A DNA stretch of 64,000 nt, taken from assembly GCA_029555385.1 (NCBI GenBank), contig JAKPSH010000288.1:26718-90717 (forward strand). The letters run 5' to 3'. The notes under the pieces are model-generated. The model saw nothing but the letters and a program-made list of their open reading frames with translations, was not told the origin of the DNA and ran no database searches. Positions 31,669 to 48,140 of the stretch are shown here, piece after piece (positions within the stretch are counted from its first letter, which is position 1; every line of letters starts with the position of its first letter). A program made the translations under genes and the position numbers. Origin of the DNA: Pseudomonadota bacterium. GTDB taxonomy: Bacteria; Bdellovibrionota_C; UBA2361; SZUA-149.

Positions 31669-33138
31669 ATGGAAATTGAGGAGGGTCTGAGCATCAAAAA
31701 TCCGGACATTCTCTTCGTCATTCCGCCAGTTCTTAGGTTTCTGGGAAAGAGCAGTGAATCGTTCCCGCTTGGACTCGGCTCTATGGTTTCGTGCCTAAAG
31801 GCGAACGGTATCAGCGCCTTGATTTATAACAGCGATATATGTAAAGCCACTCGCCGCAAGATGTGGTATTGGCCGGCAAGAAAACAGTTTGAAGGCATCC
31901 ACACCTCTTTTGCTAAAAGCTGGCCGCGCTACGATTCGGCAGTCAAGAACAAAAAGAATGACGGCTGGCGGGAAATACGCTCAGTTCTTGAAGTAACACA
32001 TCCCCGGATTGTCGGCATCTCATCACGGGTCGTGGATATTCCTTCTTCGTTTGCCCTGGCCCAATTAGCTAAAGAAATTCTGCCCGAAACCAGAGTAATT
32101 GTTGGCGGACCCTCTGCCATCACCTGCTCTGATTACTTAATGAAGTGCCGCGCCATAGATTGCTTAGTGCTGGGGGAAGGGGAGAACACCATTGTCGAAT
32201 TGGCCGGCTTTCTTCTGGGAAGAGCCAAGAATAAACGCTTGGGTGATATTGACGGAATCTGCTACCGGGATGCCGAAACCGGCCAGACAGTTCGCTCAAA
32301 TCCTCGTTCGCTGATCGCGAATATTGACCAAATTCCCTTCCCGGACAGAGAGTCCATGTTTTTTGTTGATGAACAGCAAAGAATCAAACGGATGAACGCT
32401 TTTGCCGATGTGTTAACATCGAGGGGATGTCCCTATCCTTGCATGTTTTGCTGCGCACATGCGGCCTGGGGCACAAAAAAGCCCAGACTGAGAAGCGTAG
32501 AAAATGTCATCGAAGAATTGAAGATCTTACACAGGCATTACCAGCAAAAGTTTTTCATCTTTTGGGATGATCTTTTTACTTACGATCGAAAACGCGCCAT
32601 ACATCTGTGCCGCAGAATAATCGAAGAAAATCTGAAGATTTCCTGGCTGTGTCTCGTGCGAATAAACACCCTCGATGCCGAGCTCTTGGAAATCATGAAA
32701 GAAGCAGGATGCATCGAGATACAAATAGGCATTGAATCAGGAAGCAACAGGATTCTTAAGCTGATCAAGAAATCTCTGACCATTGAGATGATCAAGAGCG
32801 CGGTTCCATTAATTAAGAATTCTGGAATTAAGTGGAGAATATTCTTGATGATCGGATTCCCAACAGAGACCGAAAAGGAGATTGCCGAAACAATCGGTCT
32901 CGTTGATGAGCTTAACCCAGATTTCGTCGATCTGGGCATTTTCGCACCCTACCCAGGGACACCGATCCACGAGGAGCTGAAAGCTCAAGGGCTTTTAGGC
33001 GACAGCTTCATGAAGAGCGACATGTATAACCCTGAAATTAATTTCACCGGCACGATTTCCAAGAAGGTGTTCAGGAAAATAGCAATGGATGGCTTCGCGC
33101 TTGTTGATCAGCATAATGAACGAGCTTACAGGTCATAA
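31669..33138 (+). CDS. B12-binding-domain radical SAM protein (class B)
   Basis: Radical SAM 'CPYPCMFC' (CX3CX2C); N-terminal Rossmann/B12-like 'RIVGISSRVVD...VIVGGPSAI'; composition visibly AT-richer than neighbours. Confidence 0.85.
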   Translation: MEIEEGLSIKNPDILFVIPPVLRFLGKSSESFPLGLGSMVSCLKANGISALIYNSDICKATRRKMWYWPARKQFEGIHTSFAKSWPRYDSAVKNKKNDGWREIRSVLEVTHPRIVGISSRVVDIPSSFALAQLAKEILPETRVIVGGPSAITCSDYLMKCRAIDCLVLGEGENTIVELAGFLLGRAKNKRLGDIDGICYRDAETGQTVRSNPRSLIANIDQIPFPDRESMFFVDEQQRIKRMNAFADVLTSRGCPYPCMFCCAHAAWGTKKPRLRSVENVIEELKILHRHYQQKFFIFWDDLFTYDRKRAIHLCRRIIEENLKISWLCLVRINTLDAELLEIMKEAGCIEIQIGIESGSNRILKLIKKSLTIEMIKSAVPLIKNSGIKWRIFLMIGFPTETEKEIAETIGLVDELNPDFVDLGIFAPYPGTPIHEELKAQGLLGDSFMKSDMYNPEINFTGTISKKVFRKIAMDGFALVDQHNERAYRS

Positions 33139-43838: not shown

Positions 43839-45788
43839 ATGAATAATTCTCTCGATTCAGAATTGCCTTTTGCCGCCGGTACTTTAATTGATAATAGATA
43901 TGAGATCGTCGGCGAGTTGAGCAAAGGCGACCAAGGCACCGTATACGAGGTGCGCGATCAAGCGCTGAACAACGAAACTATCGCGCTCAAAGTGCTGTAT
44001 CCGCATTTAATTGCCGATGCAGCTTTGCTCGCCCGTCTCGGGCATGAGCTGCAATTCGCCCGCCGCCTCGGCCACCCAAATATTGTTTCCGTTTTTGATG
44101 CCGGCGTGGCGGACGATCGCTTCCCCTACGTTACGATGGAGCTTTTCCACGGGGAAAGTCTTGCCGAGCGCCTCCGGCAAGGCCCTCTGCCGCTTGAGGA
44201 TATCCTCCATATTCTTGTGCAGGTCTGTCACGGACTTTCCGCGGCGCACCAGATGGGCATCGTTCATCGCGATTTGCGCCCCGCGCACATCTTGCTGGAC
44301 AGTGAAGACAACGTAAAAATAGGAGGATTTTATCTTGCCCGGCGTTTCCCATTGGAGGCTGGCCTCGATGGCGAGGATTGGATAAAGCAAATACACGCGG
44401 AGTACTATAAGGCACCTGAACAATTTCAATCCGCAATAGTTGATCCGCGCGTAGATATTTATGCTCTAGGCATTATCGCGTTTGAGATGCTCTCCGGTGA
44501 AAAACCCTTTGTCTCTACAGATTCCGTCAGACTTGCGGAAATGCATTTCTCAGAACCGCTGCCTAAGCTTGCGCCGCTGCGCCATGATGTCCCGCCCTGG
44601 CTGGAGAAGCTGGTCCAAAAATGCGCCAACAAGAATCCCGATCAACGCTGCCCGGGCGCAGACGCAGTCTTATCCGTCCTCTATGAAAACGCGCCGGAGT
44701 TCTTTTCGGAAGCAACGCAGCTTAGTAATTTTGTGCTCGCCCGTTCTGTTTCGCCTCCGGTTCCTTTTTTATCACACTTTGCCTGGCTGAGCCGGTTTCT
44801 TGCTTTGGCCGTTCTTTGCGGCATCGTTTTCTTGGCGGTGCGCACCGCGTGGTACCAGTCGGTACCCATGGAAGAAAAACATGTGGCGGTCGAGGAAGAG
44901 CCTCCTCTTCTGGAACCAAAATCAGCCGGGTCCCCTTCACCGAACCTCGCAGATCAAGACGGCATTACGCCGCTGATGTGGGCAAGCGAAAAAGGGGACA
45001 TCGATATGCTCAGTGTCTTGCTGGTTCAAGGCGTCAAGCTTGATGAACAGGACAATAAAGGCTGGACTGCTTTAATCTATGCTGCCGGACAAGGACAGCT
45101 TACAACAGCAGAAAAACTCCTGGCCTCAGGCGCCGCGGTTGATGCACGCGATAAAAACGGCGCTGCCGCGCTGCATCATGCAGCAGCACGCGGCGCGTTA
45201 GATGTTGCTTCATTGCTCCTCAAACACGGAGCCGATATTAACGCTGTCGATAACGATGGGCAGACGGCGCTGATTTATGCCGTTAAGCGCCACAATCCGG
45301 CCCTAATTACCTTGCTGCTCGACAACAAAGCGAGGCTGGACATCTACGACAAGGACGCGCGCAGCGTGTTTTTCTACGCCGATAAAGACGAGCTGCGGCA
45401 GTTGAGCAACCGGGCAGTTGCCAAATCAGACCCTGAAAGCAAAGTCAAAAGAGTTGGACTCCCCACAACGCCAAATCAACCGCAGTTGAATTACCCAAAG
45501 CGAACGCGGCTGCGCGCTGGAGTTCCGCGAGGAGTCTGGGAAGAACGAGGTCCTGCCGGTGCGGTACTTCTCTCGTGCAAAGTCGAAGTGTTGAATGCCG
45601 GTGAAACAGATGCGCACGATGTCAAAGTCTCGGTTGTCACCCCGCTTGGACAAATCGTTGATTTACCGGGACCGGAAACATTGCCCAAGAATTCCCGGGC
45701 CGAATATTCAAACGAAAACATCGAAGTATTCGCACCAACCAAAGGCAGACTCTCTGTCCGATCCGATTGCGCCAACTGCCGCAAGTGA
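43839..45788 (+). CDS. Ser/Thr-kinase-like protein (probable pseudokinase) - TM helix - ankyrin-repeat domain
   Basis: Kinase fold with 'IALK', 'HRDLRPAHILLD' (Lys->Arg, Asn->His), 'IGGF' in place of DFG, 'YKAPEQF'; TM 'FAWLSRFLALAVLCGIVFLAV'; at least 4 ankyrin repeats ('DGITPLMWASEKGDIDMLSVLLVQGVKLD...'). Confidence 0.8.
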   Translation: MNNSLDSELPFAAGTLIDNRYEIVGELSKGDQGTVYEVRDQALNNETIALKVLYPHLIADAALLARLGHELQFARRLGHPNIVSVFDAGVADDRFPYVTMELFHGESLAERLRQGPLPLEDILHILVQVCHGLSAAHQMGIVHRDLRPAHILLDSEDNVKIGGFYLARRFPLEAGLDGEDWIKQIHAEYYKAPEQFQSAIVDPRVDIYALGIIAFEMLSGEKPFVSTDSVRLAEMHFSEPLPKLAPLRHDVPPWLEKLVQKCANKNPDQRCPGADAVLSVLYENAPEFFSEATQLSNFVLARSVSPPVPFLSHFAWLSRFLALAVLCGIVFLAVRTAWYQSVPMEEKHVAVEEEPPLLEPKSAGSPSPNLADQDGITPLMWASEKGDIDMLSVLLVQGVKLDEQDNKGWTALIYAAGQGQLTTAEKLLASGAAVDARDKNGAAALHHAAARGALDVASLLLKHGADINAVDNDGQTALIYAVKRHNPALITLLLDNKARLDIYDKDARSVFFYADKDELRQLSNRAVAKSDPESKVKRVGLPTTPNQPQLNYPKRTRLRAGVPRGVWEERGPAGAVLLSCKVEVLNAGETDAHDVKVSVVTPLGQIVDLPGPETLPKNSRAEYSNENIEVFAPTKGRLSVRSDCANCRK

Positions 45789-45935
45789 TCGCTTACTGCA
45801 CTCAGCGCGAAAACCAGCTGCAATTACAGCGGCTTAGCGCGCCAGCACACGACTGCTGTATTCTTTTCTGTCTCTGAGGTATTTAATGTATTTATAATAA
45901 TCCTCCGGCGAGCACAGCGTTCATGCGGAACAAGT

Positions 45936-46973
45936 ATGGGAAATAAATTTTCGGCCCTTCAAACACAAATCTTCTCAACACAGGCATTAAATGAAATCCA
46001 AGAAGCCCTGCATGAGCTGCATGAGGAATCAAAAGATTTAGGGTTCGGCCCGGATATCACACAGCACGTCAATCAGAGACTCTTGAACAAGGATGGCTCT
46101 TTTAATGTGCGCCGCGAAGGATACAACTTGTTTCGATCGCGCAGCATTTATCACGCACTGCTTAACTCAAAGTGGCAGCATTTTTTTGCTATTATCTTTT
46201 GCGCTTATATTGTGATCAACTTTTTTTTTGCTGCTTTGTTTTTTGCTCTTGGGCCAGAAGCTCTAGCCGGATCTGACGCGACGGGCTTGGCGCTTTTTTT
46301 TGATTGTTTCTTTTTCAGCGTCCAAACTTTTTCGACGGTCGGTTACGAAAAATTGCATCCGATAAGTTTGACGGCGAATTTCTTGGTTACACTCCAGTCA
46401 TTGGTCGGACTGCTTGGTTTTGCCCTGGCGACTGGATTGCTTTTTACCCGCTTTTCCCGGCCAAGCTCAAAAGTAATCTTCAGCAAGTTTGCGCTTATTG
46501 CACCGCAGCAAGACGGACTTGCCTTTGAATTCCGCGCAGTCAACGCAAGACCGAACATGCTGCTGCACTTGGAAGCTCGTGTAGTAATGAGCCGGCTGGA
46601 ACGGCAAGGCGGCTGCGTGCGGCGCAAGTTCTACGATTTAGAGCTCGAACGCCGGCAAATTATGTTCTTTCCGCTGCACTGGACGATCGTCCACCCGATT
46701 GATCAAGACAGTCCCCTGTGCGGAGCAACCAGGGAAGAACTTGCCCAATCCGATGCAGAATTCCTGGTCATGCTCAGCGGCATGGACGATACTTTTTGGC
46801 AGACAGTCTACACATGGACCTCTTATAAGCACAACGAGATCGTTTGGGGCGGCGCGTTTGACAACATTTTAGAGACATGTCCGGACGGCAGCGTTAAGAT
46901 AAACTTGGACCGTGTGCATGAATTCCACCGCGTAGAAATCGCTCCGGCGCTCAAAGCAGCCAATAGCTCATGA
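45936..46973 (+). CDS. Inward-rectifier-type (KirBac-like) potassium channel with atypical filter TVGYE
   Basis: N-term 'RLLNKDGSFNVRREGYNLFRSRSIYHALLNSKWQHFF', pore 'FFFSVQTFSTVGYEKLHP', cytoplasmic Ig-like C-domain; codon usage markedly AT-richer than neighbours. Confidence 0.8.
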   Translation: MGNKFSALQTQIFSTQALNEIQEALHELHEESKDLGFGPDITQHVNQRLLNKDGSFNVRREGYNLFRSRSIYHALLNSKWQHFFAIIFCAYIVINFFFAALFFALGPEALAGSDATGLALFFDCFFFSVQTFSTVGYEKLHPISLTANFLVTLQSLVGLLGFALATGLLFTRFSRPSSKVIFSKFALIAPQQDGLAFEFRAVNARPNMLLHLEARVVMSRLERQGGCVRRKFYDLELERRQIMFFPLHWTIVHPIDQDSPLCGATREELAQSDAEFLVMLSGMDDTFWQTVYTWTSYKHNEIVWGGAFDNILETCPDGSVKINLDRVHEFHRVEIAPALKAANSS

Positions 46974-47057: not shown

Positions 47058-48140
47058 ATGGCGCAGCAATCAATCGTTGATTTATTTTACGCCGCAAACA
47101 AGCTGCACGCGCAGTATGAGCAGAAATACGGCCGCAAAATGGTTGCGCCGGAACAGGAAAATTCCTCGCGCGTCCTTGAATTCGTCGATACACAGAATCG
47201 AAAAGTATCGGTTCTGCTGGAATTGCGGGGAGACCGCCATGCCTTGGTGCTGCTCGCGGAAATGGTACAAAAGCTGGATCGTGTGCCGCCCCGGCAAATA
47301 TTGTTTATCGTTGAAGGACTCGGGCGTCAGGGCATTGAACAGCCGCGCTACAGTCCGCAGTATCTAGCCGAGGAAATCGCCCAGCGCTATAAGATTGCGC
47401 TGACCGGCGGCATAAAGACCGTTGCCGATTGGGATGTCATCACTGAAGTAATAGCCGAGTGCGCGGTACAGCGTCCACCGGTACCGCGCAAACGGGTAAT
47501 CGGTGCGCTCTTGCTTTCGGAATCGCTGAAGAGCTGGCGGCGCAGCAAGCAGAACATTCTTGAAGCAATCGAAACCCTTGCCTCTTGTTGGAATACACCG
47601 GAGCAGCGCGTCGTAAGCATCAGCGAACTTTATGCGGCAAGCGAAAGGTTCACACAGCTCGAAGCTGAACAAAAAAAACAAATCAACGCGCTGATGGCGG
47701 CGGCCGCGAAAAAGAATGCTGGTAGACTGGACCTGGAAAACTGGCTGGTGGTGACAGAAATCATTGATGACGCTGTGCGTAAAGGGCTTGCACGGGATCT
47801 GGTCTTAGGCTCGGCCGTGAACACAATGGCTCCAGTTGATGCAGGAGGATATCCGGACTTCGTTCATGCGATGAACACGGCTATGCAAACTTGGGGCGAA
47901 GGCGTAGGCCGCGAAGAACTACATAAGTGCCTGATTTCCGCGCAAGCAGATCGCCGTAAATCTCCGGACAGCTTTATGGCGACAACGCAAAAGATCGGTC
48001 AAATTTTTACAGTTGTCCAAACCGAACTCACGGCAATCAATATTCAGCGAGCTCTTCAGGAAAACAATCGCGCACGCAACGTGCTCGTTGTGGCCAGTCT
48101 GATACATGAAAAGGTAATTCGTTCCGCTTTCGGGTATTGA
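47058..48140 (+). CDS. Hypothetical soluble protein (360 aa)
   Basis: Clean ORF downstream of the channel gene; no recognisable motif. Confidence 0.5.
   Translation: MAQQSIVDLFYAANKLHAQYEQKYGRKMVAPEQENSSRVLEFVDTQNRKVSVLLELRGDRHALVLLAEMVQKLDRVPPRQILFIVEGLGRQGIEQPRYSPQYLAEEIAQRYKIALTGGIKTVADWDVITEVIAECAVQRPPVPRKRVIGALLLSESLKSWRRSKQNILEAIETLASCWNTPEQRVVSISELYAASERFTQLEAEQKKQINALMAAAAKKNAGRLDLENWLVVTEIIDDAVRKGLARDLVLGSAVNTMAPVDAGGYPDFVHAMNTAMQTWGEGVGREELHKCLISAQADRRKSPDSFMATTQKIGQIFTVVQTELTAINIQRALQENNRARNVLVVASLIHEKVIRSAFGY

Follow-up and report, generated by a model that had tools for sequence, protein, structure and literature searches.

A KirBac-family channel gene of a Bdellovibrionota bacterium with glutamate in place of the second glycine of its selectivity filter

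We describe a gene for a potassium channel subunit with an altered selectivity filter, which lies in a stretch of 64,000 nucleotides of contig JAKPSH010000288.1 (assembly GCA_029555385.1), called the window throughout. The product of the region 45936-46973 is a true member of the KirBac family (IRK-C), a channel subunit with two transmembrane (TM) helices and a predicted tetrameric assembly, and it comes from a bacterium of the Oligoflexia/Bdellovibrionota. All the structural hallmarks of Kir and KirBac proteins are present: two TM helices with a pore helix and P-loop, a slide helix, a C-terminal immunoglobulin (Ig)-like domain, and homology to the known members. A phmmer search of PDB chains matched residues 47-330 of the window protein to residues 12-293 of KirBac3.1 (E 2.8e-60) and also found KirBac1.1 (E ~4e-49), with eukaryotic Kir2, Kir3 and Kir6 ranking next. 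Pfam assigned PF01007 IRK (4.7e-08, 33.4 bits against a cut-off of 22.7), PF17655 IRK_C over residues 180-339 (E 3.1e-25, 89.3 bits) and the generic ion-channel pore family PF07885 (9.3e-07, 29.1 bits). An AlphaFold2 monomer model was built from 58 homologs, with a mean predicted local distance difference test (pLDDT) score of 84.3, and the top 25 PDB matches of this model in Foldseek are all KirBac3.1 (E ~1e-30, 39% identity in the alignment). The slide helix, residues 71-77, aligns to the N-terminal region of KirBac3.1 (residues 12-47), and the N-terminal extension contains a low-confidence helix at residues 15-28. A first-pass annotation, made from the sequence alone, had proposed this architecture of slide helix, two TM helices with P-loop and cytoplasmic Ig-like domain, and had suggested comparison with KirBac1.1 and KirBac3.1; phmmer, Pfam, AlphaFold2 and Foldseek all bear it out. 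The features of the locus are collected in Table 1.

Table 1. Features of the channel gene and its neighbours, in window coordinates.
Feature	Position	Strand	Basis
Protein-kinase-fold and ankyrin-repeat protein, 649 residues, predicted pseudokinase, upstream of the channel gene	43839..45788	+	Pfam, sequence motifs
KirBac-family ORF (open reading frame), intact, 345 residues, stop codon included	45936..46973	+	ATG start; KirBac3.1 and Pfam matches
N-terminal extension, residues 1-46, ahead of the region alignable to KirBac3.1	45936..46073	+	phmmer alignment; AlphaFold2 pLDDT 40-56 over residues 1-40
Tract with 91 differences from the canonical-filter allele L002	46127..47066	.	940 bp; Fisher p ~8e-28
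Slide helix, residues 71-77	46146..46166	+	AlphaFold2 secondary structure; aligned to KirBac3.1 slide-helix region
TM1, residues 80-104	46173..46247	+	AlphaFold2
Pore helix, residues 118-133, with family motif FFFSVQT	46287..46334	+	AlphaFold2 and homolog alignment
Selectivity filter, ACG GTC GGT TAC GAA = T134-V135-G136-Y137-E138	46335..46349	+	Codons; alignment to KirBac3.1 TIGYG
Codon 138, GAA (Glu); GGA (Gly) in sister allele L002; CAA (Gln) in contig L001	46347..46349	+	Contig comparison
TM2, residues 145-174, with F170 at the bundle-crossing position and derived T171	46368..46457	+	AlphaFold2, alignments
Cytoplasmic Ig-like Kir C-terminal domain, residues 180-339	46473..46952	+	Pfam IRK_C; beta-rich in AlphaFold2 (180-332)
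ORF of 360 residues downstream of the channel gene, no Pfam or NCBIfam match	47058..48140	+	Pfam/NCBIfam search

Few residues in biology are as strongly conserved as the second glycine of the GYG filter, which is seldom replaced in nature. In the window protein the canonical K+ signature T-x-G-[Y/F/L]-G is replaced by T-V-G-Y-E, with Glu138 aligned to the second glycine of the TIGYG filter of KirBac3.1; the codons at 46335-46349 and this alignment confirm the earlier reading of the filter, including its GAA codon. We considered whether GAA might be a sequencing or assembly artefact of a true GGA codon. Only one base separates it from the sister allele described below, and no positive support for an error was found. 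Since the same GAA codon occurs in three assemblies of different source (the NCBI contig, JGI 3300010345 and Logan SRR29761469) whose sequences disagree at other positions, an artefact of this kind is very unlikely. The identical protein is encoded on the JGI contig (8,007 bp), which differs from the window by 1 nucleotide in 8007, and on the Logan contig (5,382 bp), which differs by 3 in 5382. A further contig, ENA ERZ773283, matches the window without any difference, though it starts only at 46357, just beyond the filter.

The rarity of this residue was assessed at several depths of the family. Among the best 120 homologs drawn from 5.8 billion clustered proteins the filter column is glycine in 119 of 119 others, the exceptions being the query itself and a twin that is 99% identical to it. 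It is likewise glycine in all ten metagenome loci of the nearest clade covered by a pattern scan, which did not include the JGI samples carrying the window allele, and in the >230 canonical relatives examined. When 150 representatives of clusters at 50% identity were compared, 146 had x-x-G-[Y/F]-G and four deviated (TLGSS, PLGGG, TVGTG and ALGYD). A scan of genome contigs yielded nothing closer than relatives from Acidobacteriota and Sporocytophaga, at 41-46% identity. The filter TVGYE was found in no other sequence examined apart from near-clonal copies, a literature search for GYE was likewise empty, and none of the close homologs, the 150 representatives or the relatives of P0264 belonged to a diversified clade with GYE. 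This last protein, from Thermoanaerobaculia, has the filter ALGYD, in which the second glycine is replaced by aspartate, and a degraded pore helix (RLAFSAQT); it is the sole other variant with an acidic residue in place of the second glycine that we found, and it too is isolated, as 104 of its 104 listed relatives have canonical TIGYG or TIGFG. Glu138 is thus genuine, a derived state that stands out within its family.

The nearest relatives of the gene form a small allelic series at the filter. The 90%-identity cluster of the window protein has four members among ~15 billion sequences: the window protein itself (TVGYE), P0123 (TVGYG), P0001 (TVGSQ) and one partial sequence. P0123 shares 93% identity with the window protein; its gene, on L002, a contig of 1,931 bp from GCA_020047475.1, has GGA at codon 138 and gives the filter sequence TVGYGNL. 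Given this codon in so close a sister allele and a cluster of only four members, Glu138 is evidently derived and evolutionarily young, and a single G-to-A transition (GGA to GAA) accounts for it. P0001, encoded on a 1,561-bp contig of JGI 3300009676 (L001), has two residue differences from the window protein, both in the filter, where TAC GAA has become TCC CAA. The contig differs from the window at 46310, 46345 and 46347 only, all inside 38 nucleotides; the chance that two of the three differences fall in the 15-nucleotide filter is ~3e-4 if they are independent and ~0.02-0.03 if they stem from a single event. The TVGSQ version comes from a single short contig, and its differences fit a real clustered mutation, a short conversion tract or a cluster of low-coverage errors. 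Two further ideas about this site were set aside. An assembly bubble at the filter, considered for a contig (L018) that starts 10 nucleotides after the variable site, is uninformative at a coverage of 2.5x. In the case of templated hypermutation of the diversity-generating retroelement type, neither the filter region nor the gene has a template repeat anywhere in the window, and the changes are not adenine-specific.

Comparison with the canonical-filter allele also reveals a mosaic. Upstream of the tract of differences there are no differences at all in 893 bp (45234-46126), and the number of synonymous substitutions per synonymous site (dS) is 0.025 in the N-terminus, 0.62 in the TM and pore region and 0.23 in the C-terminal domain. 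The boundary at 46127 suggests homologous allelic exchange of the part encoding the TM/pore region and the C-terminal domain, or else a short contig that is a chimera of strains. On both views a very close relative carries the channel gene with a canonical filter. Over the whole gene the ratio of nonsynonymous to synonymous rates (dN/dS) between the two alleles is 0.107, a value that speaks for purifying selection on the gene in its entirety. The window allele nevertheless carries derived residues at columns that the family conserves, namely Y191Q (Tyr in 94%), A171T (Ala in 87%), I180V (Ile in 91%) and R120L, and the same four columns are conserved also in a non-canonical clade with TLG[S/T/A]S filters, described below. 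These replacements hint at relaxed constraint. Decay with an AT bias was considered and rejected, as the direction of the differences from L002 is not significantly AT-ward. The AlphaFold2 model was also discarded as a read-out of the substitution: with the same alignment, the GYE and GYG alleles give pLDDT values of 79 and 78 over residues 131-140 and identical secondary structure, which is uninformative.

The base composition of the gene had earlier been taken as a sign of horizontal acquisition, on the estimate that a gene of mid-40s per cent GC lay between flanks of 57-60%. Its GC content is in fact 48.5%, that of the flanking genes 52-54% and that of the window 53.4%; the gene is indeed lower than its neighbours, and its N-terminal and TM halves do reach 44-45%, against 52.6% in the C-terminal half. 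Of 45 long ORFs, all but one exceed it in GC (z = -2.1), but GC at third codon positions (GC3) is 53.8%, within the normal range (z = -1.2, rank 7 of 45). The deficit falls mostly at codon positions 1 and 2, which are low because the protein is rich in phenylalanine (9.9%) and leucine (11.9%). The only ORF with a lower GC content (46.9%) lies at 31669-33138 on the forward strand and encodes a B12-binding radical SAM protein (PF04055 and PF02310). A recent gain from a low-GC donor could draw, beyond the overall GC rank, on the GC3 of the TM segment (46%), on neighbour synteny that is not kept in relatives at 53-59% identity, and on the sharp, recombination-like boundary at 46127. This boundary, however, divides two alleles of one gene at one locus, which points to homologous exchange or a chimeric contig, and the canonical sister allele is just as low in overall GC (49.0%). 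With ordinary GC3 over the whole gene, no significant AT bias between the alleles and named near homologs that, though few, belong to Oligoflexia, Bdellovibrionota or Bdellovibrionales, the phylum of the host, a foreign low-GC donor is unsupported and we regard such a gain as improbable.

The genes on either side answer to the description given in the first-pass annotation. The product of 43839-45788 retains HRD, but the catalytic-loop asparagine is replaced by histidine (HRDLRPAH), DFG by G-F-Y (KIGGFYLAR), so that the DFG aspartate is missing, and its glycine-rich loop is degenerate. The downstream ORF adjoins the channel gene only within the window lineage. Homologs of the channel at 53-59% identity lie in unrelated contexts, without kinase-ankyrin or 360-residue neighbours, and we rejected the neighbourhood as a functional clue, both neighbours being lineage-specific. 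A second Kir or K+-channel-like ORF, which might supply a heteromer partner, was not found in the 64-kb window. The interval 45870-45935 is AT-rich and contains a TATAAT-like element (tatttataataatcc) ~35-45 nucleotides 5' of the start codon, preceded by a weak terminator-like hairpin at 45843-45858. This arrangement suggests that the channel gene may have its own promoter; a consensus promoter scan upstream of the gene called none.

In its fold and domain order the window protein agrees with KirBac3.1 from Magnetospirillum magnetotacticum (PDB 1XL4, 6O9U) and with KirBac1.1, and it shares with them the pore helix FFFSVQT and the post-filter sequence KL(H/I)P. It differs from both in having TVGYE rather than TIGYG or TVGYG, an additional N-terminus of 46 residues, and the replacements at positions 191, 171, 180 and 120. 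In joining the whole Kir/KirBac architecture to a non-canonical filter, the window protein recalls the NirBac proteins (Zubcevic et al. 2015, PMC4607889), compared here by description only, which tetramerise without TxGYG. That study defines the NirBac type functionally, by its non-selective flux of monovalent cations. The likeness is closest to NirBac2.1, where the P-loop is otherwise conserved and close strains differ in the filter, as do the GYG, GYE and GSQ versions here. NirBac1.1 and NirBac1.2, by contrast, have wholly unrelated P-loops and were shown to be non-selective, and NirBac2.1 is uncharacterised, whereas the window protein presents a single, very recent residue change known from its sequence. 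Nor is the deviant filter maintained among orthologs as in the NirBac type: GYE occurs in one near-clonal allele whose sister has GYG.

Departures from the classical filter have been described in other channels as well. TbIRK has the filter GGYVG and prefers K+ over Na+ by >7-fold (PMC5429665). Prole and Marrion (2012, PMC3283738) described K+-channel homologs with GYX filters from kinetoplastids and from certain prokaryotes; these are six-TM proteins of the KCa or cyclic-nucleotide type, unlike the two-TM Kir-type window protein, and the GYX genes of Leishmania and T. cruzi adjoin canonical-filter channel genes, suggested to be paralogs, whereas the 64-kb window holds no paralog. Human disease mutations affect Kir filter glycines, as in Kir6.2 G134A/P266L (congenital hyperinsulinism), Kir2.1 G144 and GIRK2 G156S (PMC12658365). 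G134 of Kir6.2 occupies precisely the position that residue 138 has here. The human alleles are pathogenic, with a measured loss of function or selectivity, while the window carries a natural bacterial allele in which the new residue is charged.

Acidic residues are also found in the filters of NaK (TVGDG) and the cyclic-nucleotide-gated (CNG) channels (TIGET), which keep only the inner sites, are non-selective and bind Ca2+ at the mouth. The window protein resembles these, as a mechanistic analogy only, in keeping T-[VI]-G and having an acidic residue in the filter's outer half; this residue stands at position 4 in NaK and CNG and at position 5 in the window protein, and the scaffolds differ. 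The non-selective filters of NaK and CNG channels are mentioned in PMC4607889 and PMC9822992.

A further comparison is offered by a large Kir-fold clade for which P0189 (TLGSS) stands, where 116 of its best 120 matches are without [Y/F]-G at filter positions 4-5. Its filters include TLGSS (53), TLGTS (17), TLGAS (9) and TIGES (9), the sequence being mostly T-L-G-[S/T/A]-S-P-L-H-P at pairwise identities of 42-89%. The clade comprises P0189, P0227 and P0378-P0490, with named members from Candidatus Doudnabacteria, and precomputed Pfam annotation covers IRK_C only; no description of it was found in literature mentioning NirBac. Like the window protein, its members combine the Kir fold with T-[LIV]-G and a following x-L-H-P, and they have lost both the filter's tyrosine and its second glycine. 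They are only ~39% identical to the window protein and form an old, diversified group that keeps Y191, A171, I180 and R120, whereas the window allele still has its tyrosine, and glutamate rather than serine. Conservation of this kind in the clade implies, as far as sequence can indicate, that these single-glycine channels are functional.

We favour, at a probability of about 0.48, the reading that the window gene is a young allele in which K+-selective conduction would be lost or strongly impaired, a reading drawn from the sequence together with the literature. Under it, the G-to-A transition would have placed glutamate at residue 138. This residue lies at the filter's outer end and is expected to contribute to the S1 ligands, and essentially all relatives have glycine there; in KcsA the corresponding ligands for the S1 site are provided by G79 (PMC7337057). 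Because of this outer position and the near-universal glycine there, the canonical four-site K+ filter is not expected to form in a GYE homotetramer, which would bring four glutamates together, and the outcome would be a pore that is non-conducting, or weakly conducting and poorly selective. The allele would then have spread through several sampled populations, so far without frameshifts or stop codons. Mutations of the second glycine have been stated to abolish K+ selectivity as well as function (PMC3283738), and complete loss of function was reported for Kir6.2 G134A (TIGFG134) in the genotype G134A/P266L (PMC12658365); the earlier suggestion that the glutamate should perturb K+ selectivity agrees with both statements. 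We count P0264, with its isolated ALGYD filter and degraded pore helix, for the same reading. The accompanying suggestion of a glutamate ring that senses divalent ions or protons is speculation, and the near-identical contig with glutamine in place of the glutamate weighs against it.

Several observations weigh against a young, impaired allele. The dN/dS of 0.11 against the sister allele is low, though it is averaged over a divergence that is perhaps mostly older than the glycine-to-glutamate change; the ORF is intact in every assembly; and the excess of derived changes in the window allele, four against one, is not significant (p = 0.19). The NirBac channels (PMC4607889) and the TLG[S/T/A]S clade make plain that Kir folds without GYG can be functional and maintained. 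The TVGSQ contig, if real, would represent a second filter change in an otherwise identical gene, which looks more like selection than decay.

These points give room to other accounts of the same allele. The chief rival is that it has been neofunctionalised as a NirBac-like channel, in which T-V-G would keep the inner sites S3 and S4 and the outer sites would be lost, leaving a pore for monovalent cations without selectivity among them, perhaps encircled at the mouth by four carboxylates to which divalent ions or protons would bind; the steps from GYG through GYE to GSQ may in that case lead toward the single-glycine filter type. NirBac1.1 and NirBac1.2 are functional, non-selective channels of the Kir fold, NirBac2.1 has TTGTD in a conserved P-loop, and the P-loop, differing between close strains, has been proposed as an evolutionary hotspot (PMC4607889); TbIRK prefers K+ without the signature (PMC5429665). 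TVGSQKLHP of L001 is similar to the TLG[S/T/A]SPLHP kept throughout the 116-protein clade, the clustering of its differences in codons 137-138 is improbable by chance, and the intact window ORF recurs in several samples. Yet GYE has no clade of its own and is confined to one near-clonal allele beside a GYG sister, TVGSQ comes from one 1.5-kb contig on which three differences in 38 nucleotides also fit low-coverage errors or a conversion tract, and a change from glutamate to glutamine would delete the very carboxylate on which this account depends. The window allele has, moreover, lost Y191, A171, I180 and R120, which the functional non-canonical clade retains, and single substitutions of the second glycine in characterised K+ channels were reported as loss of function. 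On balance we regard neofunctionalisation as possible, though less likely than an impaired allele. Its more ambitious form, in which a K+ channel lineage has been caught in the act of conversion to a single-glycine, NirBac-like cation channel, driven by selection, through successive filter substitutions on an otherwise constant protein and exchange of the TM/pore module between strains, toward the T-x-G-S-[S/Q]-x-L-H-P filter kept by the Candidatus Doudnabacteria-type clade, seems to us distinctly unlikely.

It is also conceivable that the channel is still essentially K+-selective, with the glutamate side chain pointing off the pore axis at the extracellular mouth, where it would tune conductance, block or pH sensitivity. 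Residue 138 is the outermost of the filter and T-V-G-Y is intact, the gene as a whole bears the mark of purifying selection, and TbIRK is moderately K+-selective with a non-classical filter. The invariance of glycine at this column in >230 canonical relatives argues to the contrary, as do the general statement on second-glycine mutations (PMC3283738) and the complete loss seen on exchange of glycine for mere alanine at the Kir6.2 equivalent, in the G134A/P266L genotype; this possibility strikes us as more doubtful still. An allele with lost or impaired K+ conduction thus remains the reading that we prefer.

Kir homologs with deviant filters are already known, and the window protein is a new and very recent member of this group, a natural mutant and not a novel channel type. 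Should the allele prove to be no more than a recent loss of function, it would mean little beyond the ability of the bacterium to dispense with the channel. The 93%-identical GYG sister allele, and possibly the GSQ variant, are nonetheless near-isogenic controls for GYE, and together they make up a natural series for the effect of losing the outer glycine of a Kir filter, in which the pore may prove to be dead, non-selective, or gated by divalent ions or pH. Such a series bears on the origin of NirBac-type filters.

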